A stretch of DNA of 64,000 nucleotides from a virus. Lineage: Duplodnaviria; Caudoviricetes. Both the position numbers and the translations under genes were made by a program. The stretch spans positions 1-64,000 of IMG/VR virus record IMGVR_UViG_3300026549_000895; one strand, written 5' to 3'. Shown here one piece after another: positions 43,332 to 64,000 of this stretch; position 1 is the first letter of the stretch; each line of letters begins with the position of its first letter. The notes beneath the pieces are model-generated. The model did not search any database, had not been told where the DNA came from, and worked only from the letters and a program-made list of their open reading frames with translations.

Positions 43332-46300
43332 ATGAAAGAAGGGAATGTCTTGAAAAGAAAGTATCCCATAACGACTCCGGATACTCTAAGAAGAGTTCTT
43401 CATACCAACAAAGCTTTCTTTGATACTCATGTAAAAAAGAATGAAGGCTATGTTGATACCAACGGTTCTGTTTATAATGGAACGGTTGAAAACTTTGGTG
43501 GAGAGCTTTTGTTAGAATCCAGAAAGTTATTATTGAATAAACCAAGCATTGACAAAATCAAAGTATCATCTGAATTTCTTCAATATTTTGATATTAAATA
43601 TGCTGGCGATGTTAGTACATATGAACAGCAGAATCTGATTATATGTACTTTGAAAGAAGACGTCTTCACAGATAATCATACATGGCAAATTAAGTTACCA
43701 TGTGACTCTCGACCTATACCGAGATCATTAACCGATACCATCGACTTAGGAATGATTCATTCATTGAGTAAATCGGATTCAATGATAAGTAGAGAGAATT
43801 TCTATCAGACTAATAAAGATGTTGTCATCGTAAAAGACGGTGTTGATATTCCTTTGAAGTTTTCAGAGATTGGCAACAATACAATCTATGCAAGATATTG
43901 GTATTGCGATAAGCAAATGTATACTGATATTCCGGCTCCAGATGATCCCGAAAATAATCACATTATCGGAATCAAATCAATGAATAATATGACTAATTCT
44001 GAATGGAAGAATCAGGTAATGTTTTATATTCAGAATGATACATTGAATACAGTTCCTTACGTTGGTATCGATGCAAGTGCATATGATGATTTTCCGTTGT
44101 TAAGATATGGAGCAAATGGACATGATAATTCATTCGTATTTCCGGGTATGGAACCCGGAACATATGGAATTTATACCGACACTGGAAACTTACCAGAACC
44201 TATCAGAGTTCCAGATGATCCCGAAAGAGTTGATGGAGATTGGTTCATCGAATTAATTCCAGCCAGAGGATATTCCTTTAAGAATGTTGATGGATTATAT
44301 GACAAATCAAATGATTATGTAGTAATTGATAAAGTTGTGTACTATCGAGCTGATAGTTACGATGGTACTCGTACTGCGGAATATGAATATGATATTCCTT
44401 CGGATTACGTTCATCATTTCCCATGCAATAATATCAATGGATTTATGAATGATGGAAAGATGTATACAACACGATCATTCTCAACTCTAATAAATCCGGA
44501 CAATACTCATATCTATTATGATCGTATACAACATAAATACTATACTTGGAATGGTATTATCTATAAAGAAATCCTTTCAGGTCAAGGTATCCAATACTAT
44601 ACAGATGAAAACGAAGTTGTTCATGGATATGCAGCATTTGATAATTACCGATATAACTATAGAAAAGATGAAGCCGATAAGTGGGTTATCACTGCTTTGT
44701 TGAGAGCAGAATATCAAACTTCCGCTTTATACAATTATGAATATTTAAAAGGCGATGCGGTTTCTGGTATTCATATCAATTCAACTTCAATGCATTCTGA
44801 CAATGGTATTATTGAAAAGAATGGTATAACTCACAACATGTGTGATTTCGATGGTCTTCCTTCTTACTTCCATAATTTCTATAACAATAGAAATGTATGT
44901 TTCTCTCGTTCAATTATATATGCAATTCGTGATGATATCAATCATGAAAATCAATCCCCAACTGATAAGCCAACTGCTGGATTGATTGTTGATTCTGGTT
45001 ATCCTATCACACAAGTCAAGTATTCATATGACATGGAATCAGATATTCATTATGTCGATCCGGATGCATATGAAGGCGATGGTGAATATTCATCCACAAC
45101 GAATTATCTTTCTGATATTGCATATGTTGACGATGATGAATTCGCTGATACACATTTAACAGGTGAGAATGTTCGCTATCGTTTTATTTATCACGGTAAT
45201 CATTTCTTCTCAACCGATATTGTTGAATTCGACCCAGATATGAACTATGGTCGTGTATATTACGTTGGTAATGATCCTGCCGTATTCACATCAAATTTAG
45301 ATGGACATTTACCCGGAAGAACATTAGCCAGAATTTGTGATATTCCGACTTCATTTACTCAATTACAGAATATACATGATTATGCTCCAACATACGTTGT
45401 TGATGTTGAATATAATAGAACAGAATCTCCATACGAAGAAGATGAACAATTAAAAGTATGGGATGAATATGTTCCAGAGTGGGTTCGTTCCAATAATGGA
45501 GTAATCTTCCCGAAGTATTATCGGTATTATGATTTTTGGAGAGATTATTTAACCAGCGGAAATCCCCATTGTGTATACGATAATCTGAATTGTTATATTA
45601 CAATTCCTTCTGCTGATAATACAATAACTATCAACAATGCCGGTACTGGTTATGACATTGATGATGAATTTTCTATTCAAATTGGTGGCCAAACCATCAA
45701 TGGTGTTGTTACAGATGCGAACAATGGTGAAGTTATATCTATCGAAATAGATGGCTCCTTCAATATTCATTATACTTTCTTATCACAATTAACAACATTT
45801 ACAACCACAACAAAAGTTGGTTCTGGTACTGGATTAACTTTGGATATCAATGTTCCAGATTACAATTCATATCTGAGACAGCTGAAAGGTTATCCAGAAG
45901 ACATGTTCGTTCTGATGTTTGATAGCATAGATAATTTGTGGATATACAATGCTACAAATAGTGAATTCACAAAAGAATGCAAATTGACAGGTGTCAATCA
46001 TCCTGATAATCCATATGTTGATGAATCAATTGAAATGAATGATGCTTTCATTAATGATTTAAAGAATAAGAATATCTTTGTTCCAAACAATTATCTGCAT
46101 AAGAAAATAAATGATGAAATAAAGATTCCCGTCAATCAGAATTCTCCTTCAATTACAACTGATATTCTTCCTTTGGATATTCCTATTGATACTCCTGAAG
46201 ACTTATCTGCTTATCTTGAATTGATATATCAAAATGAACAGAACTCAATGTTCTTCATTTACAAAAATTCATATGAGGATCATTATAGAACATATAAGAT

Positions 46301-47138
46301 TGAAACATATCCCGATTCAGAAGTGAATGAAGTTGTATTACCAAAGAATCATCAACTCAATCTGAAAAGGTATTCGAACATGAGTTGTGCTTTCTCATAT
46401 ACAGGACGTGATAAGAGTCAAATGGATATGTGTATCTTCAATCCTTCTAAGACAACAATTTCTTCTTATGAATGGAAGAGTTCTGGAACATATGTGAATG
46501 AAACAGTACCTAATGCTCCAAAGGTTGTTGCTGATTCAGGACCTACATACATTTCAGAAGCCGTTCACGATGAATCATATGTAACACGTGGAAATATTTA
46601 CATGTCTGCATCGGATCATTATAACGGTTGGGTTGAGAATTTACAATCAACACTGGAAGAAATGAGTCGTGATGAATTGTTACAATATATCGAAGATACT
46701 TTCAAGAATGAACATTGTGAACCCTTGGAAGCTGAAAGAGCATATATCGAAACTATCGATGAAGATCTTCCTTTCTACAGATATTCCAAGGAAGACTTGA
46801 TAACATACATCATAGCCAACAGTGTTGATGAAGTCAACAAAGTAGATGGTGTACATCTTGTTCAAACTATTAATACAAGAATGGACTCTGATGAATATCA
46901 TGCTACCGGTGATTGGCAATTGATTGATGTTGAAACATATGATCCAAATGCAATTGTTAATACAAATGAACGGAGACCAAATGAGATTTGTTATGTATTC
47001 AAGTTTGATTCTTTGATAGCAGATTTTGATCAGTTCAGAATGTTCGATGCTGATGGAGTAGATATATCAGATAAATGCTTACTCATCTATGATGGTAATG
47101 CTTGGTATTTCAGCAACAATAGATGGGTTCGTAAATAA
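43332..47138 (+). CDS. Large virion protein (tail fibre/baseplate appendage), paralog of 47156..50524
   Basis: 1268 aa, D/N/Y/T-rich; shared block YGRVYYVGNDPA...RTLARICDIPTS; GTGY..DD and GSGTG motifs. Confidence 0.55.
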   Translation: MKEGNVLKRKYPITTPDTLRRVLHTNKAFFDTHVKKNEGYVDTNGSVYNGTVENFGGELLLESRKLLLNKPSIDKIKVSSEFLQYFDIKYAGDVSTYEQQNLIICTLKEDVFTDNHTWQIKLPCDSRPIPRSLTDTIDLGMIHSLSKSDSMISRENFYQTNKDVVIVKDGVDIPLKFSEIGNNTIYARYWYCDKQMYTDIPAPDDPENNHIIGIKSMNNMTNSEWKNQVMFYIQNDTLNTVPYVGIDASAYDDFPLLRYGANGHDNSFVFPGMEPGTYGIYTDTGNLPEPIRVPDDPERVDGDWFIELIPARGYSFKNVDGLYDKSNDYVVIDKVVYYRADSYDGTRTAEYEYDIPSDYVHHFPCNNINGFMNDGKMYTTRSFSTLINPDNTHIYYDRIQHKYYTWNGIIYKEILSGQGIQYYTDENEVVHGYAAFDNYRYNYRKDEADKWVITALLRAEYQTSALYNYEYLKGDAVSGIHINSTSMHSDNGIIEKNGITHNMCDFDGLPSYFHNFYNNRNVCFSRSIIYAIRDDINHENQSPTDKPTAGLIVDSGYPITQVKYSYDMESDIHYVDPDAYEGDGEYSSTTNYLSDIAYVDDDEFADTHLTGENVRYRFIYHGNHFFSTDIVEFDPDMNYGRVYYVGNDPAVFTSNLDGHLPGRTLARICDIPTSFTQLQNIHDYAPTYVVDVEYNRTESPYEEDEQLKVWDEYVPEWVRSNNGVIFPKYYRYYDFWRDYLTSGNPHCVYDNLNCYITIPSADNTITINNAGTGYDIDDEFSIQIGGQTINGVVTDANNGEVISIEIDGSFNIHYTFLSQLTTFTTTTKVGSGTGLTLDINVPDYNSYLRQLKGYPEDMFVLMFDSIDNLWIYNATNSEFTKECKLTGVNHPDNPYVDESIEMNDAFINDLKNKNIFVPNNYLHKKINDEIKIPVNQNSPSITTDILPLDIPIDTPEDLSAYLELIYQNEQNSMFFIYKNSYEDHYRTYKIETYPDSEVNEVVLPKNHQLNLKRYSNMSCAFSYTGRDKSQMDMCIFNPSKTTISSYEWKSSGTYVNETVPNAPKVVADSGPTYISEAVHDESYVTRGNIYMSASDHYNGWVENLQSTLEEMSRDELLQYIEDTFKNEHCEPLEAERAYIETIDEDLPFYRYSKEDLITYIIANSVDEVNKVDGVHLVQTINTRMDSDEYHATGDWQLIDVETYDPNAIVNTNERRPNEICYVFKFDSLIADFDQFRMFDADGVDISDKCLLIYDGNAWYFSNNRWVRK

Positions 47139-47155: not shown

Positions 47156-50100
47156 ATGGCTGATAAAAATTTCTTATATTCAGGAGCCAATACCATGAGA
47201 ATACTCATGGATCAAGAACGAAAGCATTGGTTGCTAAAGACAGATAAATCAAAAACATTACAGGACAAAGAAACCGGTGATATGTTTAAATCGGTTATCG
47301 ACAATAACGGTGGAGAGATTGTTCTCTCCACCGAGAAACTTACTGATTCCAACGATTTCTTTCAGACATTGAAATTCAATGTTGCAACTTCATCAGGTAG
47401 TGACATTCTGGAATTTCAATCTTCGGCTTTCACTTATTGTCCTGAAGTGAATGGTTTGACATTCGCTCGTGTTAAAGCTTCAAAGTATCCATATTCATAT
47501 GGAGGAAGTGTACAATATTTCAATTACAAAGTCAAATTTGAAAACTGTGAAATTGTTACTTTGTTATTTGGAACATCAAAGAATTCTTCAAATGTAATTC
47601 CTACAAAATGGATCAAAACCTCAACTGTTCCAAAGGTTGTTGTAATCAATACGGCTGATTCAAATAATGTAATTGTCGAACAATCTTTGGCATTTGATTC
47701 CAATATAACAAATCCGGTTTGGTATTATCCATTAACGGAATCTTTACAGCCTTTTGCTTTGACAGAAACCGCGGCTAATGAATACACAACTTCATTGGTA
47801 GTTTCAGATAATAACATTGGATATCCAATGTATTGGTTCACTTGTGATAATTCAAACATTGGACCGAATGTGACAATAACCGATGCTGGTAATGTCAATA
47901 ACAACGGTGACACAATTATCTATTTCGGTTCGGAAGGTAATGGTTCTCGGTATAATGTTCTTGGATATGTCGGTATAGATGGAAATGAAGATGCTACTCC
48001 AACATGCGATTCAACATCCAATTTCTTTATACTCGTACATCCAAAGGATCCCAACGTAACATTCTCCGGAAACATACTTACTGACAGGCATATCGATTTG
48101 TCAAGAAATATAGTTTTCCGAGATGATACTGATCTTACAGAGCACACGATTCCGATTGTATTCTCTTCAGATGAAGGTAGTACAATATTGATGAATACAG
48201 ATGATTGTGTTTGGAATTATGAAGATAACACAACATATTCTATTCAGATGAATACATTTGATAGAAACTGCATGAATACCGGAACAACAATAAGCAATCT
48301 GCTTCCATTCATAAAAATACATCTTGATGAATCAGTTCCATTCGAAGTTGATGATACTGACTATGGAATGGCTGGTGTGTATATGTCATCCATGAATCCA
48401 AAGGATGATATTCAAACAGGTTATCCTTTTGATATTTCTAACTTTGATGGCTTGCCGACATGGATGACAACGGATGAACCAGATCGTCAAAGACTTGCTA
48501 TGTATGCAATTCATAACACTCCGTTCTATGCTGAAAGCGATCCTATGTCACGCCAAGTATCAGGATTGTTATTCGATCTTGGTGAAACAGTTCCTGATTC
48601 AGATGAATCATTGTCTTCTAATCAGTATGGAAGAATCTATTACGTAGGTAATGACCCAGCTGAATACGAAAACAACGCAACTTCAGAACATCCAAAACCT
48701 GCGAGAACATTGGCAAGAATTTGTGATATACCAACCTCTGTTGTTCAGTTATCAAACATATCCGGTTTGGCACCTTCTTCAATTGTTGATAAGAAATATG
48801 TTCGTACAGAAGCTTCTTATACAGAAGAAGAAAAAGATAGAGTATGGAATATTCTGTCATCAAGATGGGTTCGCCCTTCAAATGTAGATGAAGATAATAA
48901 TCCTATTTATTCAGAAGGACAAACAATGGTATTCAATTCCGAAGAAGATTTGAATCGTGTTGATTTGATTTCCCACAATGATTTCCGTTATCGTTTGAAT
49001 CTCAATCCCAAAGTTGATACTGATGATGTTTATATTTCATCAATTACAGAAAAGGGATCTGGATATGCTTTCAATGATAACATTCTTCTCGTTGTCGGAG
49101 GTTTCTCATTCAATATTCAAGTATTGACAGTTGATGCAGATGGTGGAGTATTGACAGCCGGTATTGGTGCTGCAGAAGCTTCCGAAATCAATCTTTCTAA
49201 CTTCAATATGAATTCTTCAGGTTCCGGTAATACAGAAGAATATTCGACATCTCCTCGAAATGGTTCTGGTTCTGGTTTCAAATGCATTCTTGGAATTAGA
49301 AATTATTCTCAATATCAACCGAAAAAGGGTGGAATCTTTGAAGACTTGTTTGCAGTTGTTCATCTTTCTGATGGAATATACTTCTATCAATATAAGATAA
49401 ATCATCCTTCAAAGGAAACTCTGTTGACTGGTCATTGGGAGAAAGGTCAAAAGATATCTTCATTGGTTGATTCTTCTCAAATAACTGCGGATGGAAATCT
49501 ATCTGTTGAAGACGCTTACACTGTCGGAAATATTCCTCATTACAGAGGTATCAATGTTCAACGTAATATTGATGATTCTCCGACATTGACAATTGTTGGA
49601 ATGAAAACAAATAACTGTATAAACATTCCTTCATCAAGTGTTATCACACCGCTCAATTCCGATATAAATAAATTCTATTCAAATGGAGAAACTCTGAGTG
49701 CTACTGCAACAATGAGAACTCCATATGGAGTATCAAAGGCATTACATAACATTTCGAAATTGTATTATGATTCATATATCATTTGGAGATGGAAAACAAA
49801 TTCCTCAACAGATTTGAATTTCGAATATGCAATCATTCGTCGTTCTTTGAACAATTACATTTCGACTGATGTTACCAATTACTTACCTCCGAACGATTTG
49901 TATGTGAAGGATTATCTCCACACAAACGATGCAACTACAATCGTATGGAATACACCTGACAATCAAACATTTATATTTGTATTTGATGCTGAATATCAAA
50001 AGCACGAATCATATCAATATATCAACAATGGATTCCAAATCCAAACAAAGGATTTCTCATTTGATGATATTGATATAAAGACTGCAGCTTCTTATATAGC

Positions 50101-50524
50101 TCCTGTTTTGTTTGATGGAGATGGTCCTCTGGGTAAACTTGCTTGGAACATCATGACAACATCACCAACACTCGTGCATGCCAATGGAGCAATTCGTATT
50201 GATAACGATGTTGTTACATTCTCAGATTGGGAGATTGGCATTCAAAGACAAAACATCACACACGTTCCCATTGGTGGATGGCGTTGTATAATGCCAAAAC
50301 AAACAAAGTTCCGGTTCATCAATGGAACCACACAAGTTGTTCCAATTCAAATGGATGTGATTCGTCGTTCAGCAACAGCTTCTCAACAAACGGTCAGATT
50401 TGTTAAAGATTCAAATGCTGTTGATGTATCAGATCATACTTTGATTATTGATACAAATACATCTACGAATGAAACACATCTGAAAGTTTACAATCCTTCA
50501 ATTGACCAGTTCCAAGAATTATAA
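47156..50524 (+). CDS. Large virion protein (tail fibre/baseplate appendage), paralog of 43332..47138
   Basis: 1122 aa; YGRIYYVGNDPA...RTLARICDIPTS; GSGY..ND, GSGSG. Confidence 0.55.
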   Translation: MADKNFLYSGANTMRILMDQERKHWLLKTDKSKTLQDKETGDMFKSVIDNNGGEIVLSTEKLTDSNDFFQTLKFNVATSSGSDILEFQSSAFTYCPEVNGLTFARVKASKYPYSYGGSVQYFNYKVKFENCEIVTLLFGTSKNSSNVIPTKWIKTSTVPKVVVINTADSNNVIVEQSLAFDSNITNPVWYYPLTESLQPFALTETAANEYTTSLVVSDNNIGYPMYWFTCDNSNIGPNVTITDAGNVNNNGDTIIYFGSEGNGSRYNVLGYVGIDGNEDATPTCDSTSNFFILVHPKDPNVTFSGNILTDRHIDLSRNIVFRDDTDLTEHTIPIVFSSDEGSTILMNTDDCVWNYEDNTTYSIQMNTFDRNCMNTGTTISNLLPFIKIHLDESVPFEVDDTDYGMAGVYMSSMNPKDDIQTGYPFDISNFDGLPTWMTTDEPDRQRLAMYAIHNTPFYAESDPMSRQVSGLLFDLGETVPDSDESLSSNQYGRIYYVGNDPAEYENNATSEHPKPARTLARICDIPTSVVQLSNISGLAPSSIVDKKYVRTEASYTEEEKDRVWNILSSRWVRPSNVDEDNNPIYSEGQTMVFNSEEDLNRVDLISHNDFRYRLNLNPKVDTDDVYISSITEKGSGYAFNDNILLVVGGFSFNIQVLTVDADGGVLTAGIGAAEASEINLSNFNMNSSGSGNTEEYSTSPRNGSGSGFKCILGIRNYSQYQPKKGGIFEDLFAVVHLSDGIYFYQYKINHPSKETLLTGHWEKGQKISSLVDSSQITADGNLSVEDAYTVGNIPHYRGINVQRNIDDSPTLTIVGMKTNNCINIPSSSVITPLNSDINKFYSNGETLSATATMRTPYGVSKALHNISKLYYDSYIIWRWKTNSSTDLNFEYAIIRRSLNNYISTDVTNYLPPNDLYVKDYLHTNDATTIVWNTPDNQTFIFVFDAEYQKHESYQYINNGFQIQTKDFSFDDIDIKTAASYIAPVLFDGDGPLGKLAWNIMTTSPTLVHANGAIRIDNDVVTFSDWEIGIQRQNITHVPIGGWRCIMPKQTKFRFINGTTQVVPIQMDVIRRSATASQQTVRFVKDSNAVDVSDHTLIIDTNTSTNETHLKVYNPSIDQFQEL

Positions 50525-53540: not shown

Positions 53541-53678
53541 TAATATTTATAATTATACTATTATAAATATTACATAATTACCATTCATTAATTTACCGAC
53601 TTTATGAGTTACATCAGGGGGCTCTTGTAATAAGTGAATTCGAGTAAAAATATTATAACAAAGGAGCTAATGAAAAAT

Positions 53679-54707
53679 ATGGCTATGAAATACTCAGATC
53701 TCATGCTTGACTTCGAGACTGGCGACGCTTCATTTGAAGATATGTATGTCCAGGAAGCAGTCGGCAAGATAAATGTTGCATCTGCAATATTTGATAATGA
53801 ATATAGAATTGCTGAGACTCCCGAGGGTGTTAATGCATCTTATGTTCAGGAAGCTGCTGATGCAGGTCTTCCGGCTACTCAGGATTCTGCTAAGAGTGCA
53901 GCAACTCAGGCAGTAGGCCAGCAGCTTATTGCTACATATGACCTCGTTCTTTCTTCTGCAAGAAAGATCAAGGAATCTACAGGAAAGGCTCTTAAGAGCA
54001 TCTATACAATCGGCAAGTCTTATGGACTTTCTAAGGACAGCGAGGCTGCTGACTTCGCTAAGAAGCTTGCTCAGCTTATCGTTACTGATAACGGCTCTTC
54101 TAAGCTCGTTCAGGTTAAGCACCTTCCTGGTTCTAAGGTAGTTCAGATCAACGGCAAACACTTCCTCAAGGGCGGCAAGGCTTCATCTCTCGCAGAGAAG
54201 TTCGCTAAGGGTTACAATGCTGCATCTGCTGCATTCGGTCTCGACATCTCCAAGATCTATGACGATGCTTCTATTGTTTCATTCCTTGGTAAGAGTGCAA
54301 CAAGCGTTCCCAGTGGTGCTGGTACTCTCACTGATGTAGCTGACCTTCTTTCCACATTCGGAACAATGCTCAGCTCTGAGGCTAAGCTCAGTGGCGAAGG
54401 TTCTTTTACAGATACTCTTTCTACAAGAGATCTCGAGAACGTATTCCTCGCTGTATATTCAATCAATAAGATCGCAAGCGCAGTAGCTATCGAGCTCGGC
54501 AACTCTTCTAACAAGAGTGGTGCTAAGTCTGCTATCTCTGACGTAATCTCTAAGACAGATGCTGGAAGTAAGTCTGTTACTAAGGCATGCGCTAAGATTG
54601 GTCAGAACGCTAAGGCTTGGGCTGATTCTGCTGTTAAGTACGCAGATGCAGTATCTAAGGGATTCTGTGATTCTGTATATGCTATCTCTGGTAGCATCAA
54701 TCGATAA
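53679..54707 (+). CDS. Abundant internal head protein (A/S/K-rich) with acidic propeptide
   Basis: Strong codon bias; YVQE|A twice in acidic N-terminus; start approximate (ATG 53670 or 53679 after AAGGAG). Confidence 0.6.
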   Translation: MAMKYSDLMLDFETGDASFEDMYVQEAVGKINVASAIFDNEYRIAETPEGVNASYVQEAADAGLPATQDSAKSAATQAVGQQLIATYDLVLSSARKIKESTGKALKSIYTIGKSYGLSKDSEAADFAKKLAQLIVTDNGSSKLVQVKHLPGSKVVQINGKHFLKGGKASSLAEKFAKGYNAASAAFGLDISKIYDDASIVSFLGKSATSVPSGAGTLTDVADLLSTFGTMLSSEAKLSGEGSFTDTLSTRDLENVFLAVYSINKIASAVAIELGNSSNKSGAKSAISDVISKTDAGSKSVTKACAKIGQNAKAWADSAVKYADAVSKGFCDSVYAISGSINR

Positions 54708-54725: not shown

Positions 54726-55838
54726 ATGAGTTACACATACAACGATTTCGTTATGGAAGCTGCAATGGTTGAAGCAACCAATGATACAGAAGTATCAGAC
54801 ATTCAGATGGAACAGTGGAATGCGGAGTTCAATGTAGCATGTGCTGCATTTGATGCACTCAGAAAATATTCTCTGATCGCTGAGTATGCTCAGTGTGACG
54901 TTGAAGAGTTCGTTCAGGAATCTCTTGATGACAAGATCAACAAGGTTGATGACTGGAAGAACAGCGGTGGTAAGATGAAGAAGGTTCTTGGAACTATTGT
55001 TTCAGGTCTTCTCAAGGCTTTCCGTGCAGTAGCGAAATTCTTCAAGAACCTTTTCTCAAAGGAGAATAATCCTTTTGCAAAGGCTGCTCGTTTCATTAAG
55101 AAATATAAGGAAGGCAAACATGATCGTGAGATCAAGAAGGGTGTCCGCAAAATAGAGAAGGAAGCAACATCTAATAAGGGTCTTGCTAACACAGTTGCAG
55201 ACATGTCCGGTGAAATGGATGCAAAGGATAAGAAAATCGCATATCTCGAAAGAAAATGTGATAATCTTGTTAAGCAGGCTAAGCACTGGGCATCTGTTGC
55301 AAGAGGATACGCTACTGAGTATGATAAGCTCGTGACATATGTAGGTGAACTCAAGAATGCACTCAAGAAATCAAATTCTGAGAAGGATAGACTGCAGGGT
55401 GTAATCATCGAAAAGTGCAATATGATTGACCGTTGCTGTGAAAATATCTTTAAGCAGCAGGGTATGCATAATAAAGCACAGGGCAAGAAATACAGCGAGG
55501 AAGGCAGAGAAATACTCAGAGAGAATGAGTATAAAGATTTTGCTGATCAAATGCCTACTCTTGATACTGCTGAAAAAGCATATGAGAGTGCTGCTAACGA
55601 TACTGCCAAAGCAACTGCGTCCGCCGAAAAGGTTGTTTCTGTAATGGAAGATCTCCAGGAATCTATTGCAAATGGTGAGTTCGGAACTGAAGCAATGAAT
55701 GCTATCAAAAATACAGCAGGAAATCTCAACAAGGTTGTTCAGGATTCAAATAACTTTGGAAAGGCTGCACAGAAGCTTACTGTATCAGAAGCAGGTGCTG
55801 CAGCTAAGCAGGGTCTTCCTTCTGAATACTTTGTGTGA
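54726..55838 (+). CDS. Internal head/ejection protein with propeptide, amphipathic helix and coiled coil
   Basis: FVME|A, FVQE|S, then VLGTIVSGLLKAFRAVAKFFKNLF. Confidence 0.6.
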   Translation: MSYTYNDFVMEAAMVEATNDTEVSDIQMEQWNAEFNVACAAFDALRKYSLIAEYAQCDVEEFVQESLDDKINKVDDWKNSGGKMKKVLGTIVSGLLKAFRAVAKFFKNLFSKENNPFAKAARFIKKYKEGKHDREIKKGVRKIEKEATSNKGLANTVADMSGEMDAKDKKIAYLERKCDNLVKQAKHWASVARGYATEYDKLVTYVGELKNALKKSNSEKDRLQGVIIEKCNMIDRCCENIFKQQGMHNKAQGKKYSEEGREILRENEYKDFADQMPTLDTAEKAYESAANDTAKATASAEKVVSVMEDLQESIANGEFGTEAMNAIKNTAGNLNKVVQDSNNFGKAAQKLTVSEAGAAAKQGLPSEYFV

Positions 55839-57952: not shown

Positions 57953-57979
57953 ATTCAATACTTGAAAGGAGTATTCATC

Positions 57980-58231
57980 ATGTTTGGAATGAACTTTGAC
58001 ATTGATGAGGTTGCTGTTCAGGAAGCTTCCTATGATGCAGCTTCATCCTCATACAAGGATCTCTTTGAGGATAAGTTCACATCTTTCAATCCTGAGAACA
58101 TCGTAAGCTCTGGCAACAACAAGCTCAGAACTGATATGTACGATATGGAAATCGAAGATTCTGATCTTGCAATCGGCTATAAGAACGATCCCCCTGCAAC
58201 TGACCCTAAGATCGGTCGTTGGATGGACTAA
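57980..58231 (+). CDS. Small acidic head protein
   Basis: ATG after AAAGGAG; AVQE|A motif; hairpin at 58242-58264. Confidence 0.55.
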   Translation: MFGMNFDIDEVAVQEASYDAASSSYKDLFEDKFTSFNPENIVSSGNNKLRTDMYDMEIEDSDLAIGYKNDPPATDPKIGRWMD

Positions 58232-58822: not shown

Positions 58823-58907
58823 AGATAAGCCCCCTTATTAGGGGGCTTTCCTTTTGACGTTTTGATAATTTCTACTACTGTATTATTTAATAAGGAGGAT
58901 TATCGAA

Positions 58908-61898
58908 ATGGAATATATTTTCGAAGCTAAAATAAATACTGAAGATAGAAACAAATTACCAGATTCAGCATTTGGTATTCCATCAAAAAGGAAATATCCA
59001 TTGACTGATGAAAACCATGTTCTTCAAGCTGTTCGTTTCTTCAACAAAGCACCTGAAGAAGATAAATCCGAATTAGCACATAACATCGTAAAACGTGCTA
59101 AAGAACTTAATATGGATTGGGAAAAATGGGATGTCTTAAAACCATATCTTGATAAACCTATTGAGGAAGCATATACTAAGGATTTACATTCTACACCAGA
59201 AGCAGATAAGATATGTGCATACTTATGTAAGTCTGTGGAATACGATAATGCTTCGCCTAAAACATGGAGACTTAAATCTCCTGACGAACTTACAGATCAT
59301 AACAAGGGTAATTGTCATGATACCGCTTGGTATGTCTTCAATAACTTGGATGCTTATGCAAAGCACCCGGTTGACAAAGGTATTCTTTTCTTTATTGAAT
59401 ATAAAGAAGGAAAGACGGAAGGTGGTCAAACACATTCTGTTTGTTATGAAAAGATACCTGATGGAATCTGTATCATAGAATGCTCATGGCAAGGTATGCG
59501 TGGTACATTTCCATATAACGACATCAATGAATATATCTCTGTTGTTAAAAACAATTGGGAATTCACAGGTGATAATGATAAACTTTATGCAACTGAAATA
59601 AAGCATACATCTCAAATTCATCCCGGTATGACTCTGGGTGAATATGTATCCGTTGCAATGAAGAATAAAGAAATCATTACGGAATCATATGTACCACATC
59701 CTGATGATGACTACACATCAGGTACATCAGATTTCAATCACGATGACGATGATCCTGATGATTGTTACTGTGAATCTGACAAAGAACGTGTTAACGATAA
59801 AGGAGAAATAGTACCAGATAAATGTACTAAATGTGATTCTCCTATTGAAATATATCTTAAGGGTGAACCCGTTTATTTATGTTCTAATAAGAAATGTGGT
59901 AAGTACTATGGTACTGTTCCATGCAACATAAATGAATCGCATCAAATGTCAGAAACACAAGCGTTCTACAAACGTTGGTTTGATTCTAAAGCCAAAGAAG
60001 ATTTAGATAAAGCAAAGAATATTGCTAAACAGATACATGAAAAATATGAATCTGATAAGCAACCTCCATGCGGAAACCAAAATTGTATGCTGTGTACTAT
60101 GTGTGCCGAAGCACAATTTAGAGGAATTAATATTCTTCCACGACCAGTATATTCACCACGTGATCCGGTATTGAAAATACTTGGTGAATCGATCGTTAAG
60201 AATCCAATACATAAATCAATCAAATCAGGTTTCGATGATATGCTTGATTTAGCAACAGAACCCAGAGATGCCAGATGGTATTGTCATGTAAAATGGAAGA
60301 ATGGAAATGGTGGTCATGAATTTCTTCTTCTTAACATTAATCAGCATCTTTATGTTATGGATGCTCAACAAGGAATCGTTACTCTGAATATAGAATCAGA
60401 ATACTTCAAAGATGTTGATTATTCGGAATCATATATTTGTCGTCTTGATAACTGTGAATTGAATGAATCTTTATTGAATGAAATGAATGATCCAAAGAAC
60501 ACTCTACCTTGGAATGCTACATTGGATATTCCATTTATGCTCAAGGAAGGAATGTTAACAGAGGAAGAAGCTGAAGAGTATTGGCAGGAACATCCTGATG
60601 AAAGACCAGTTCAAGAATCTAAAATGATTCTGAATTCAAATGATTCAAGAATTCCCAAACTAATGTGTGAAGGATGGAAGATAGCTGGTACTACTATAAA
60701 CAATGAATATATTCTCATCCAAGAAGGCTATGATGATATATCGTTGCATGTATCATTGGTTCCTGCCACAATGTCAGATGTTCCCAATATGGAAGCTTGG
60801 GAATATGAATGTATGAAAGATGCATATCCTAACAGAGAAATACCTGAATCCGAAGTTGATAAACTGAAAGCCGAACTTCATCAGGATGCAATTGATTCAG
60901 TTCATAAAACAAGAATGATTCAATATGATGGTCAAACAATCGGTATGCTAACTGCATACAACGTTCTTGATGATCAATATTGGTACATTGCCGAAATATA
61001 TTTGATTGAAGAATACAGAGGTAAAGGTATTGCCAAATATATTCTCAAGAATGAGATTGATCAGCATGATAAGTTGATTCTGAATGTATATCAGAATAAT
61101 AAACACGCCATTGAGTTATATAAATCATTGGGATTTGAAATAACTCAGGATGGCGATGGTCGTTTTATAATGGAACTTGATAAAACGAAACATAAAACAA
61201 AATACCAACCTTCCAATGTATTCACTCTGGATGAATATAAAAGAGCTAACAAGTATCGTTCGGTAATAGTTGGAGAAATACATAATTCTTCAATGTTGAA
61301 ATACTATGATAAACTTCTATCGGAAAGAAAACCCGAATACTTCATATCCGAGTTTGCTCACGAAGATAGAGTGTTATCTTTACCTGAACTGAAACAGAAA
61401 CTTGATATGGCTACGAATGGTGAATTCAAACCCGGTATTCCTGATTATCAAGATAATTATGCAATTTACAAACTTGCATATGATCATGGTTGTAAATTGA
61501 TTGGTTGTGACTTGAATAATGGAAAGCATTATAATCGTATGCATGATGAAGATCATGAACGTGAAGCATATATGTTGAAGGTATTAGAAGAGTTTGAAAA
61601 TACCAACTTCGTTTGTCAACTCGGAGATCATCATCTTAGAAGTATTCCAATAACCAAGGAATTCCTTGATTATTGTGGTGATACAAAAGATGACAGAGGA
61701 ATTGTTTCCGATTTAACTGTTGACAATGCTTCTCCTATATGGGTATATTTTACTCATGAGCCAAAGGATGTTGCAATACTTCGTGAACCCAATGAATTGA
61801 AGAATGAATTGGATTTCATAAATCAACAAACAATTCAGGAAGAATATTGGCAGGACATCAAGAATGGAGTTAATCCGAAATCGAAAGATGATGAATGA
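58908..61898 (+). CDS. Multi-enzyme polyprotein: small helical domain, two papain/transglutaminase-like domains, Zn ribbon, GNAT acetyltransferase, EreA/ChaN/TIKI-like domain
   Basis: GNCHD...THS...IE; CTKC...CSNKKC; NQNCMLC...GGHEF...MDAQ; EEYRGKGIA...NKHAIELYKSLGF; IVGEIH...RE..M...LGDHHL. Confidence 0.75.
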   Translation: MEYIFEAKINTEDRNKLPDSAFGIPSKRKYPLTDENHVLQAVRFFNKAPEEDKSELAHNIVKRAKELNMDWEKWDVLKPYLDKPIEEAYTKDLHSTPEADKICAYLCKSVEYDNASPKTWRLKSPDELTDHNKGNCHDTAWYVFNNLDAYAKHPVDKGILFFIEYKEGKTEGGQTHSVCYEKIPDGICIIECSWQGMRGTFPYNDINEYISVVKNNWEFTGDNDKLYATEIKHTSQIHPGMTLGEYVSVAMKNKEIITESYVPHPDDDYTSGTSDFNHDDDDPDDCYCESDKERVNDKGEIVPDKCTKCDSPIEIYLKGEPVYLCSNKKCGKYYGTVPCNINESHQMSETQAFYKRWFDSKAKEDLDKAKNIAKQIHEKYESDKQPPCGNQNCMLCTMCAEAQFRGINILPRPVYSPRDPVLKILGESIVKNPIHKSIKSGFDDMLDLATEPRDARWYCHVKWKNGNGGHEFLLLNINQHLYVMDAQQGIVTLNIESEYFKDVDYSESYICRLDNCELNESLLNEMNDPKNTLPWNATLDIPFMLKEGMLTEEEAEEYWQEHPDERPVQESKMILNSNDSRIPKLMCEGWKIAGTTINNEYILIQEGYDDISLHVSLVPATMSDVPNMEAWEYECMKDAYPNREIPESEVDKLKAELHQDAIDSVHKTRMIQYDGQTIGMLTAYNVLDDQYWYIAEIYLIEEYRGKGIAKYILKNEIDQHDKLILNVYQNNKHAIELYKSLGFEITQDGDGRFIMELDKTKHKTKYQPSNVFTLDEYKRANKYRSVIVGEIHNSSMLKYYDKLLSERKPEYFISEFAHEDRVLSLPELKQKLDMATNGEFKPGIPDYQDNYAIYKLAYDHGCKLIGCDLNNGKHYNRMHDEDHEREAYMLKVLEEFENTNFVCQLGDHHLRSIPITKEFLDYCGDTKDDRGIVSDLTVDNASPIWVYFTHEPKDVAILREPNELKNELDFINQQTIQEEYWQDIKNGVNPKSKDDE

Positions 61899-61994
61899 CT
61901 ATTTTCCTATAATGCTTCCTTTTGGATATATATTATTAATATGAGAAAGAAGAAAATATCTTTCTCATATTAATATATGAAAGGAGTTGCCTTT

Positions 61995-62177
61995 ATGAGA
62001 ATTCTTACAGATGAAGAAAGGAAATCATATCCATACTGTTTAGCGGATGACTTTGTCATTATCGAAATCGGAAAATACACATGTACATGTTCACGCATGT
62101 GTGACGAAACATGTGTATATTCCATCACACCCGAACCCGATGAAGAGGGTTTAGAGCTTATAAGGAACTCTCAGTGA
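61995..62177 (+). CDS. Small Cys-containing early protein
   Basis: ATG after AAAGGAG; promoter motif 61922-61945; terminator 62165-62192. Confidence 0.5.
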   Translation: MRILTDEERKSYPYCLADDFVIIEIGKYTCTCSRMCDETCVYSITPEPDEEGLELIRNSQ

Positions 62178-62214
62178 TGGGAGTTCTTTTTTTATTTGAA
62201 AGGAGCTGTATATA

Positions 62215-63507
62215 ATGGACGCTGACGAAATCATTATAGAATACCGAACTAACAAAGAAAATGAACTTAAAGACATGCAGGCGTGGAAAAGATTTTTACA
62301 AGAAATCAAATATGACCCTAAAACTGCTACAGCAGAATATATTGACAACAATGGAAAGAAATCACGTGTTGCATTTAGAATTGGTCGTGGGTTATATGAC
62401 GGGTCGAAGAGAATTGAAAATGATAGATCGGATCATAATGCATATGATCCTTTATCTAAAGCTTCAAGAATCACAATGATTCCTCATAAAGGATATAAAG
62501 TAGGAGATTATTTACAAACGTTCAAACATGAAGCTTCTCATGTAAATCAATGGGCTGCTGGTGACACCGGAGGTCACATGGATTTATCTAAGTTACATTC
62601 TCAGAAGATGCTAAATTATACAAAAGAATTTATTAAAAATCACCCAGAACTCAATGATCATGACTGCGAACCGAAAGAACTACTTGCTGATTTGAGTGCC
62701 GTTATTACTCAAGGATCTAAGAGTTGGAAACGTACAATGTTAAAGGCGATTAAAGAGGGCCCGTCATATGCAAAAAATCAAGGTAAATTATCCGGTAAAA
62801 GATTTAATGAAGACAAACGAAAAGTCATGGATACATATGATATCTTATTAACGGCTCTCGATTTTTCAATAGATAATAGAAAAACCAATAAGGCCAAAGC
62901 AGAAGGGACGGCTTTCATGTATGGAATACAAAGGAAATATGAAAAATTCTATAAAGATATAATGTATCAATTGGATCATACAGATCTTAAAAATGATCGA
63001 AGCAAATGGTCTAATGAATTACAAAAGCTCGATTCAAATATAAGAAAGTCCATTGAAAGATTGATGGAAATTCTTAGTGATACATCAAAAACAATTCCGA
63101 TTAATAACAAAGAAAATCTCAAAAAGAAGGGGGTATATGACAGAGTTGATTACAGAGATCTCAGACATAAAAAAGAATTAATCCGAGAAATAAATATCAT
63201 TCGCAAAAATGCAAATGCTATGATGACAATTGTCATGAAACACGGAGGATATGGCTTTGATCCAAATAACTATAAAAGAAATTATCAAGATTCATACAGA
63301 GCGAGAATTAAATTCGTTGAACAAGCTTTAAAGGATAAGCCATGGCAAGAATCATACACAGACGATAACAGCATAGAAAATATGTACTGTGAATGTTTAC
63401 TTGAAGAACTTGATTATGACGATGATGAAATATTCATAGAAGAATTCATTGATGAATATATTTCATTATTCGAAGCATATTCTGAAGATATTGAAATAAC
63501 ATGGTAA
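62215..63507 (+). CDS. Zincin-like metallopeptidase domain protein with basic helical C-terminal region
   Basis: FKHEASHV (HExxH) with downstream ELLAD glutamate; IIE|Y and WQE|S motifs bracket the basic core. Confidence 0.65.
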   Translation: MDADEIIIEYRTNKENELKDMQAWKRFLQEIKYDPKTATAEYIDNNGKKSRVAFRIGRGLYDGSKRIENDRSDHNAYDPLSKASRITMIPHKGYKVGDYLQTFKHEASHVNQWAAGDTGGHMDLSKLHSQKMLNYTKEFIKNHPELNDHDCEPKELLADLSAVITQGSKSWKRTMLKAIKEGPSYAKNQGKLSGKRFNEDKRKVMDTYDILLTALDFSIDNRKTNKAKAEGTAFMYGIQRKYEKFYKDIMYQLDHTDLKNDRSKWSNELQKLDSNIRKSIERLMEILSDTSKTIPINNKENLKKKGVYDRVDYRDLRHKKELIREINIIRKNANAMMTIVMKHGGYGFDPNNYKRNYQDSYRARIKFVEQALKDKPWQESYTDDNSIENMYCECLLEELDYDDDEIFIEEFIDEYISLFEAYSEDIEITW

Positions 63508-63524: not shown

Positions 63525-64000
63525 ATGAGTTATAAAAATAAATTTTATCTGGAAGCTGAGTTAGAGGATGACGATACTGAGCTTGAAGAAGATGAAGATA
63601 TCGAGAAAGGACTCGATGAAGATGATGACGACAATTATGATGACGAGAATGGCTATGATGCTGATGGTGATGACGATGAGTCTGAAAATGACGAATTTGA
63701 TATTGAAGATCCGGACGAAGAAGATGAACCTCGTCCGATGACATATGATGATCTCGATGAATATGATGATACATCTGAAGATGAAGAGGATGATATGTCA
63801 GATTTCGGATCTGATGATTCTGATATCAACAATGACTATGATCCGAAAGATGCTGATGCATTGAACAAACTCATATCGTCAGAGGCTTCTGCAGTCCAGG
63901 AGTATCTTGATGCTAATATGGAAACATCAAATGATAATCTTCGTAGGTTATATGTTGATATTGCCAATGAGGAAAGATTCCATATCGAGCAATTAATGTA
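63525..64000 (+). CDS. Acidic-tract protein with ferritin-like (rubrerythrin/Flp-type) domain, truncated by window end
   Basis: Manually read MSYKNKFYLE|A, ~95 aa D/E tract, then LNKLISSEASAVQEY...IANEERFHIEQL (E...Y...ExxH di-iron pattern). Confidence 0.7.
   Translation, partial: MSYKNKFYLEAELEDDDTELEEDEDIEKGLDEDDDDNYDDENGYDADGDDDESENDEFDIEDPDEEDEPRPMTYDDLDEYDDTSEDEEDDMSDFGSDDSDINNDYDPKDADALNKLISSEASAVQEYLDANMETSNDNLRRLYVDIANEERFHIEQLM

Follow-up and report, generated by a model that had tools for sequence, protein, structure and literature searches.

Conserved glutamate sites at the module joints of a mosaic jumbo-phage protein predicted to be processed by the prohead protease

Results

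Organization of the P0001 locus

The window analyzed in this study is a stretch of 64,000 nucleotides corresponding to the first 64 kb of the 239,830-bp IMG/VR virus record IMGVR_UViG_3300026549_000895, which has a completeness estimate of 89%. It contains, at positions 58908-61898 (+), an open reading frame (ORF) starting with ATG whose 996-residue product is designated P0001. A Shine-Dalgarno sequence, AAGGAGG (58892-58898, +), is located 9 nucleotides before the start codon. Terminator-like hairpins flank the gene, at positions 58827-58848 (+; 9-bp stem including 6 GC pairs, followed by a T tail) after the upstream gene and at positions 62162-62189 (+) after a 66-residue ORF (61977-62177). 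These hairpins indicate that P0001 belongs to its own transcription unit, which begins after the first hairpin, is closed by the second, and is shared with the 66-residue ORF.

P0001 combines six unrelated domains related to DUF6582, transglutaminases, Zn ribbons, papain-fold toxins, GNAT acetyltransferases, and the EreA/ChaN/RRSP fold. All six had been proposed by an earlier reading of the locus made from the letters alone (the sequence-only reading), and all are supported by Pfam, Atlas structures, tblastn, or AlphaFold and Foldseek. The protein starts with a six-residue leader, MEYIFE|A (58908-58925, +), which ends at a predicted cut site and has a predicted local distance difference test score (pLDDT) below 50 for residues 1-5. 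The leader is followed by an alpha+beta module (residues 7-87; 58926-59168, +) ending in IEE87|A, which is N-terminal in almost all relatives and leads into a linker (residues 84-92) with a pLDDT below 50. Residues 12-54 matched DUF6582 in Pfam (E value of 7e-4), and the Atlas model of residues 7-83 was similar to a DUF6582 cluster with a template modeling (TM) score of 0.88. The next module (residues 88-259; 59169-59684, +), ending in ITE259|S, is a putative transglutaminase/papain-like enzyme according to a marginal match of residues 93-140 to Transglut_core (PF01841; 23.5 bits for a cut-off of 23) and to conserved Cys-His-acid residues (C136/H176/E191). An Asp-rich disordered spacer (residues 260-289; 59685-59774, +; pLDDT below 50 over residues 258-291) ending in YCE289|S separates this module from a four-Cys Zn ribbon cassette (residues 290-343; 59775-59936, +) ending in INE343|S. 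The ribbon has the form CxxC...CxxxxC, in which C306 and C309 are invariant, and matched sequences of Lak megaphages by tblastn.

The fourth domain, a papain-fold toxin or Gln_amidase-like module (residues 344-570; 59937-60617, +) with the triad C393/H470/D485 and a terminal PVQE570|S, is the most widespread of the polyprotein family described below. Residues 391-489 matched Gln_amidase (papain fold toxin 1, PF15644) with an E value of 2.3e-4 and 22.7 bits, the curated cut-off being 24.1, and the same family was matched in 19 of 36 relatives of P0001 (best E value of 2e-7). The triads that the sequence-only reading had named for the two cysteine modules were invariant in all aligned relatives. 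A small spacer element (residues 571-606; 60618-60725, +) containing MCE588|G and IQE606|G, with a pLDDT below 50 at residues 606-609, leads to the GNAT acetyltransferase module (residues 607-765; 60726-61202, +). The latter was identified by Pfam (PF00583, residues 651-743, E value of 4e-12, 46.9 bits for a cut-off of 20.7) and by an acetyl-CoA motif, R-G-K-G-I-A, at residues 703-708. The GNAT domain was also the only part of P0001 that matched sequences of the PDB by phmmer.

The C-terminal domain (residues 766-978; 61203-61841, +), ending in IQE978|E, had no Pfam sequence match and was assigned to the EreA/ChaN/TIKI/RRSP fold with AlphaFold and Foldseek. It was poorly modeled in the full-length AlphaFold run, in which some alignment rows were misplaced, and was therefore refolded alone with its own 38-sequence alignment, leading to a pLDDT of 95.8. 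Foldseek matched the resulting model to RRSP (E value of 1.5e-5, probability of 1.00) and ChaN (E value of 1e-3), as well as to HopBA1, the C1 domain of the Pasteurella toxin, and EreC (TM scores of about 0.41-0.45). Invariant residues of this domain form GExH, E, RE, and GDxHLR motifs (G24, H27, E50, R120, E121, G141, and H144 in the domain alignment). In P0141 and P0144, which are stand-alone relatives of this domain, a 'GILGQKWGVRRF'-like or related motif is present before and after the domain.

The tail of P0001 (residues 979-996 plus the stop codon; 61842-61898, +) corresponds to the first 18 residues of a module of the form WxDIKNGVNPxSKK.... A relative that is 88% identical to P0001, P0003, runs on for 200 residues more in this module, indicating that P0001 is a truncated form. 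No trace of this module was detected by tblastn elsewhere in the genome.

A glutamate motif is over-represented in P0001 and conserved at its joints

Nearly all joints of P0001 share the motif [ILVMFYWC]-x-E-[ASG], which occurs 15 times in the protein for 4.4 occurrences expected from its own composition (Poisson probability of 6e-5). This excess was the largest among 200 ORFs of the genome, and 15 copies were reached in only one of 20,000 shuffles of the P0001 sequence. The ratio of observed to expected copies was 3.4 in P0001, compared with 2.2 for 36 diverse relatives and 1.15 for the remaining proteome. Replacing Glu by Asp at position P1 brought the ratio to 1.2, and a reversed motif was also found close to expectation. 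The excess is thus specific to Glu. Within the first 25 residues of proteins, sites were weakly enriched genome-wide (29 for about 20 expected), and the motif is therefore not established as a general signature of targeting tags.

The eight sites quoted in the sequence-only reading are all present in P0001, although the last, at residue 978, needs a correction: the residue following IQE is Glu in P0001 and Gly in relatives (IQE|G). The site at E588 is conserved and adds to that list. In the full-length AlphaFold model, low-confidence segments were found at residues 1-5, 84-92, 258-291, 339-358, 606-609, and 761-795. Each of the first five segments is edged by a site (E6; E87; E259 and E289; E343; and E606, respectively), and E570 is located in a coil. 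Together with the homology breakpoints described below, this distribution agrees with the earlier claim that most junctions carry the motif.

Conservation of the Glu residue in aligned relatives distinguished the joints from most other copies. At the joints, Glu was retained in 46 of 46 relatives for E6, 39/44 for E87, 26/27 for E259, 33/33 for E289 (with the full motif), 14/14 for E343, 61/66 for E570, 21/21 for E588, 26/29 for E606, and 13/13 for E978. The leaders ending at the residue equivalent to E6 comprised 6 to 17 residues, in keeping with T4-type leaders (about 7-19 residues). Inside domains, Glu was poorly retained at E167 (17/25), E507 (23/78), E520 (25/83), and E547 (24/76). At E427, Glu was found in 65 of 76 relatives, only 13 of which had the full motif. 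These five copies look like chance occurrences. E401 is conserved, yet it is located within a confidently modeled helix directly after the catalytic Cys, and E647 is conserved in close relatives, yet it lies inside the GNAT fold. Since the junction Glu residues are conserved and most of the in-domain copies are not, about nine sites look functional. Cleavage at all 15 copies was considered and rejected, five in-domain copies being unconserved and one being located in a buried-looking helix.

The residues surrounding Glu at the joints were variable at positions P3, P2, and P1' (VKE|A, IKE|S, ITE|S, YCE|S, VQE|S, and MSE|S), which argues for a constraint on Glu at the protein level rather than for a fixed DNA joint. 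Joining of the modules at a fixed DNA recombination sequence was judged unlikely for the same reason.

Modules of P0001 relatives are shuffled and retain Glu at their joints

A search of 5.8 billion proteins identified at least 306 relatives of 600 to 1728 residues, encoded by contigs of up to 270 kb and sharing 18% to 100% of the length of the query. BLAST delineated an N module (residues 1-87), the transglutaminase-like module (88-259), the acidic spacer, the Zn ribbon (290-343), a papain-fold core (366-555), the GNAT module, and the C-terminal domain. In relatives, these modules were present, absent, duplicated, or reordered. For example, the Zn ribbon was found ahead of the spacer or behind the GNAT module, and the GNAT module ahead of the papain-fold module. 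The comparison of domain order with related phages, which the sequence-only reading had called for, thus shows that the modules are shuffled and that the joints retain Glu.

Homology breakpoints of P0001 were detected at residues 89, 254/263, 288, 348, 365, 571, 602/614, 761/775, and 812. Six clusters (89, 254/263, 288, 348, 571, and 602/614) were located within 5-8 residues of a motif site. For the family as a whole, 153 breakpoints in 71 non-redundant relatives were located at most three residues from a site for 73 expected, a value reached in none of 1000 random placements, keeping in mind that breakpoints are not mutually independent and that BLAST ends are imprecise.

Individual modules led to the same picture. 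Each of the 28 distinct contexts of the Zn ribbon showed a Glu at both edges, displaced by one or two residues at 4 of the 56 edges. The left edges include CYCE|S, PVKE|S, DINE|S, VYQE|N, and LSTE|S, and the right edges NINE|S, DIQE|Q/S, NFQE|A, and NVQE|G. At least six different modules come next after the N module, whose right edge reads [VI]KE|[AS] in each case. The WxDIKNGVNP module is preceded by [IVY]QE, at its edge or within one residue, behind four different upstream modules (39 occurrences listed).

The joint between the GNAT module and the C-terminal domain is devoid of the motif, as the sequence-only reading had remarked. Relatives lacking the C-terminal domain read ...ELDKTKHKT-IQE|G, indicating that the EreA/ChaN-like domain is an insertion upstream from the IQE site, which explains the absence of a cut motif on its N-terminal side. 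Judging from this arrangement, the GNAT module and the C-terminal domain probably stay fused after cutting.

The motif is also retained when a module is encoded by a separate gene. A 570-residue ORF starting in the window (63525-64000, +) and running to position 65237 of the genome (L005:11525-13237) is homologous to the C-terminal module (about 480 residues) of longer polyproteins. Fused forms have an internal joint, QMILE|AEAEEN, that is matched by the leader of this protein, KFYLE10|AELEDD, indicating that the motif persists in both the fused and the stand-alone state. Other features of the 570-residue protein are a match to Coat_F (PF07875) at residues 109-150 and a polyacidic tract spanning about 95 residues.

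The phage collection contained no cultured relative. Only the Zn ribbon, in Lak phages, and the N module matched in a tblastn search of cultured phages with P0001, and neither megablast nor a pattern scan of viral contigs led to a match. In Prevotella phage Lak-B5, an 878-residue ORF (L036:3860-6496, read with TAG as Gln) contains the same Zn-ribbon cassette close to its N-terminus. Its borders there, KLQE|S and HLGE|S, indicate that a Glu-edged cassette also exists in a very different megaphage. Resemblance to the Prevotella Lak phages was confined to this cassette.

The genome encodes an S80 prohead protease that shares the motif

An ORF of 285 residues (genome positions 188636-189493) matched Peptidase_S80 (PF20034; E value of 1.5e-8, 34.5 bits for a cut-off of 23.4) and phrog_3014, a head maturation protease. 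A 698-residue ORF (193070-195166) was identified as the major head protein (phrog_20655). The closest proteases from cultured phages, those of Yersinia phage phiR1-37 and Ralstonia phage RSL2, were about 25% identical. The genome had no match to the T4-type families PF03420 (protease), PF07068 (capsid), and PF07230 (portal).

The VQE[AS] form of the motif was observed 12 times in the genome for 1.1 expected. In the protease, it is present twice (residues 19 and 207), bracketing the S80 core, and in the capsid protein at residue 121. It was also found in a 983-residue ORF located between the protease and capsid genes, in a head-block ORF of 1057 residues, in three ORFs located just upstream from P0001, and at E570 of P0001, the sequence RPVQE|S of this site being very similar to KPVQE207|S of the protease itself. 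Alignments with relatives that were 45-61% identical showed that the sites are conserved in both head proteins: CF[VI]QE|[AS] was found in 30 of 30 protease sequences (29 relatives) and F[LIV][IV]QE|SYN-type sequences in 15 of 15 capsid sequences (14 relatives). Chance copies of the motif in the capsid protein were not retained.

The three upstream ORFs are predicted co-substrates. They encode proteins of 357 residues (53634-54707, +), with YVQE41|A and YVQE73|A and no Pfam or PHROG family, of 370 residues (54726-55838, +), with FVME11|A and FVQE65|S, and of 89 residues (57962-58231, +), with AVQE21|A. The sequence-only reading had placed the motif in propeptides of neighboring head proteins. 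VQE|A/S is indeed located close to the N-termini of neighbors, but there was no independent sign that these neighbors are head proteins.

Other genes and genome setting

In a 430-residue basic ORF located downstream from P0001 (window positions 62215-63507), the HEASH motif occurs once and KPWQE379|S is followed by an acidic tail. This ORF was assigned to no Pfam or PHROG family and did not match any of 120 listed polyprotein relatives. Paralogy was sought among the neighbors of P0001 and was not found. Further upstream, two adjacent giant paralogues of 1268 and 1122 residues (43332-47138 and 47156-50524) are 34% identical over about 250 residues and had no Pfam or PHROG match. Two ORFs of 394-404 residues located outside the window (genome positions 91350-92564 and 100554-101738) are 84.5% identical, revealing a recent duplication.

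In the head block, a 1030-residue ORF located just upstream from the protease gene (185522-188614) contains a ClpP/crotonase-like stretch (phrog_1128), which recurs as the C-terminal module of the polyprotein relative P0096. An ORF of 246 residues (183711-184451) matched the N-terminal module of another relative, P0091. Thus, head-block genes and the polyprotein family have modules in common.

The P0001 gene has a primase gene on one side and a DNA ligase gene further on, the head block being located at about 175-206 kb. The ligase gene stays downstream from the polyprotein gene in relatives. A TATTTAAT-like word recurs 5' of about 20 genes, including P0001, one head-block operon, and the primase gene. 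A scan for sigma-70 promoters gave results that were no better than shuffles. The most enriched upstream 8-mers of the whole genome were AAAGGAGG-type words, corresponding to ribosome-binding sites. The strength of these sites and the presence of a Coat_F domain suggest a Firmicute-like host.

Discussion

Proposed processing and delivery of P0001

The organization of P0001 leads us to propose that it is, on balance, a jumbo-phage cargo polyprotein that would be cut in the prohead by Peptidase_S80 after Glu, with delivery of the products to the host. Cutting of P0001 by the head protease is well supported at the level of sequence. Dicing of a polyprotein by the prohead protease had been the central claim of the sequence-only reading, which gains from the presence of conserved Glu sites at the joints, of an S80 gene, and of a motif common to P0001 and the head proteins; the dicing itself is a prediction. 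If P0001 is a substrate of the head protease, it must be present inside the prohead. Ejection and host targets are steps that we only infer, an action on host or defense proteins being suggested by the types of domains and by the strict conservation of their catalytic residues.

According to this proposal, P0001 would be taken into the assembling prohead, possibly via its short leader or the DUF6582 module, and the S80 protease would cut after Glu in hydrophobic-x-Glu|Ala/Ser/Gly. The predicted products are, from the N-terminus, the 6-residue leader, the DUF6582 module (7-87), the transglutaminase-like Cys enzyme (88-259), the acidic spacer (260-289), the Zn ribbon (290-343), the papain-fold toxin-like enzyme (344-570), two 18-residue peptides (571-588 and 589-606), the GNAT module fused to the EreA/ChaN/RRSP-like hydrolase (607-978), and an 18-residue tail (979-996). 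The folded products would most likely accompany the DNA out of the head, with host proteins as their targets at an early stage of infection.

Comparison with known systems

Phage T4 loads IPI-III and the enzyme Alt by means of short N-terminal tags that are removed by gp21, Alt being trimmed at both ends and ejected (PMC9026906). The leader of P0001 resembles those of T4 IPI, IPII, IPIII, and Alt, which are short, end in hydrophobic-x-Glu, and are processed by a Glu-specific prohead protease, and the P3 residues found here (Ile/Val/Phe/Tyr) resemble the Leu/Ile-x-Glu of T4. In contrast, T4 cargo proteins are single units losing terminal peptides, whereas P0001 has about nine conserved sites and six domains. 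The protease also differs, since it belongs to the S80 family and does not match the family of gp21 (PF03420), as does the mosaic character of the polyprotein gene family.

The type enzyme of family S80 is gp175 of phiKZ, which cuts after Glu as do T4 gp21 and gp245 of SPN3US (PMC5694885, PMC10052503). For gp245, Ser is favored at P1' and the enzyme removes its own C-terminal propeptide of 64 residues (PMC5694885, PMC10052503), to be compared with the 78 residues predicted here after PVQE207|S. As in phiKZ, 201phi2-1, and SPN3US, the present system would associate a Peptidase_S80 with cuts after Glu, a preference for Ser at P1', and many processed head proteins. It differs from phiKZ and SPN3US by the motif, which is Ala-x-Glu or Ser/Ala/Gly-x-Glu in these phages, a variant that is not enriched in P0001, and from SPN3US in that substrate cuts in the latter phage free no enzyme from another enzyme.

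Polyvalent proteins, described for phages and conjugative elements by Iyer et al. (2017), combine two to fifteen unrelated conflict-type domains in one phage polypeptide, and their release by an in-cis zincin MPTase has been proposed (PMC5512222). P0001 has six domains and is likewise a single phage polypeptide with many unrelated conflict-type domains, including GNAT. Packaging and delivery with the DNA, and proteolytic release, are predicted in both cases. The differences are the nature of the releasing enzyme, an in-cis zincin MPTase for polyvalent proteins and the prohead protease for P0001, in which Pfam detected no metallopeptidase family and hence no in-cis zincin MPTase, and the location of the P0001 gene, which is not beside virion or packaging genes. 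The terms 'transglutaminase' and 'papain' are absent from the text describing polyvalent proteins (PMC5512222). The concept proposed here joins two known ideas, T4-type targeting and processing on the one hand and the polyvalent protein on the other. We found no description of protease-jointed effector polyproteins in the literature searched on polyproteins, prohead proteases, and giant or jumbo phages.

A further parallel is provided by the MARTX toxins, in which variable effector cassettes of one polypeptide are freed by site-specific cuts between the cassettes, and whose effector RRSP has the same fold as the C-terminal module of P0001. MARTX toxins are bacterial secreted proteins that include a cysteine protease domain of their own and have eukaryotic cells as their site of action. 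They have no sequence relationship with P0001 beyond this one fold.

Alternative explanations

Several observations weigh against processing of P0001 by the head protease followed by delivery of its products. The P0001 gene is located about 127 kb away from the protease and capsid block, between the primase and DNA ligase genes, and comparison of promoter motifs assigned it to no clear timing class. The low-confidence segment 761-795, between the GNAT and C-terminal domains, contains no site, and breakpoints 365, 761-775, and 812 have no motif. Family-wide, only about 30% of the BLAST-defined breakpoints were found within six residues of a strict motif. The P3 residues of P0001 (Ile/Val/Phe/Tyr) are not the Ser/Ala/Gly favored by the S80 enzymes of phiKZ and SPN3US, and the corresponding motif, [ASG]-x-E-[ASG], was not observed in P0001 for 1.8 copies expected. 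Finally, the cleavages identified in SPN3US, except that of the protease itself, all remove N-terminal propeptides (PMC5694885, PMC10052503), so that there is no measured precedent for the dicing of a protein into several enzymes that are retained.

The invariant Cys-His-acid triads of two P0001 domains also count against the head protease because they could account for self-cleavage, the transglutaminase-like or the papain-fold domain freeing the modules in the cytoplasm or after delivery. The wide distribution of the papain-fold module would fit with such a role. The cysteine protease domain of MARTX toxins releases modules in cis, and the MPTase proposed for polyvalent proteins would do the same. 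We nevertheless consider self-cleavage quite unlikely, since the motif is conserved in the capsid propeptide, in the flanks of the S80 core, and in other ORFs devoid of these Cys domains. In addition, Glu at P1 is a hallmark of the S80/T4 protease class, and PF15644 is named as a toxin or deamidase family rather than as a processing peptidase. It is also unlikely, to a lesser degree, that P0001 functions uncut as a multi-domain protein, whether packaged or not, the motif being a by-product of linker composition or of recombination-friendly joints. The virion RNA polymerase of phage N4 is indeed packaged unprocessed (PMC5512222), and the extensive mosaicism, the acid-rich linkers, and the joints lacking the motif would be accounted for. 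A by-product of composition is difficult to reconcile with the Asp-for-Glu and reversed controls, which were near expectation, and a by-product of recombination with the persistence of Glu at joints where P3, P2, and P1' differ. The stand-alone 570-residue protein, moreover, has the motif at its N-terminus, and both the capsid protein and the protease contain it.

A last alternative accepts cutting by the head protease and assigns another fate to the pieces, which would mostly be a scaffold-like or space-filling core, expelled or retained, rather than injected effectors. Most cleaved core fragments and propeptides do exit the head in T4 and giant phages, and acidic stretches are present both in the spacers of P0001 and in the related 570-residue protein. 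The invariance of the catalytic residues in four enzyme-like modules is hard to explain for a filler, and the papain-fold toxin, GNAT, and RRSP/HopBA1-like folds are typical of effectors that modify proteins. We therefore regard this alternative as very unlikely, and retain dicing of P0001 in the prohead and delivery of its products as the preferred reading.

Implications

A broader proposal, which in our opinion has an even chance of being correct, is that the prohead-protease site is, in a large uncultured clade of jumbo phages (about 240-270 kb), the universal cassette boundary of swappable effector modules that are loaded via one targeting end and freed by the protease that matures the shell. 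Any hydrophobic-x-Glu|small joint would then allow modules to be fused, detached, reordered, or inserted, making the set of loaded enzymes variable. Such proteins would be the capsid-delivered counterpart of MARTX and polymorphic toxins, and the S80 enzyme would have a new P3 specificity.

Should the cuts prove real, head maturation proteases would process true polyproteins, beyond the trimming of structural proteins, a strategy that has so far been linked with RNA viruses and secreted toxins. Loading of many enzymes by jumbo phages on a single address tag would thereby be explained, as would the highly mosaic nature of these genes. The papain-fold toxin-like, transglutaminase-like, GNAT, and RRSP/TIKI-like hydrolase modules are candidates for new host-takeover or anti-defense activities. 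The sequence rule, a module followed by hydrophobic-x-Glu and by another module, would be usable to find injected phage effectors in metagenomes, and could serve the design of cargo for phage-based protein delivery.

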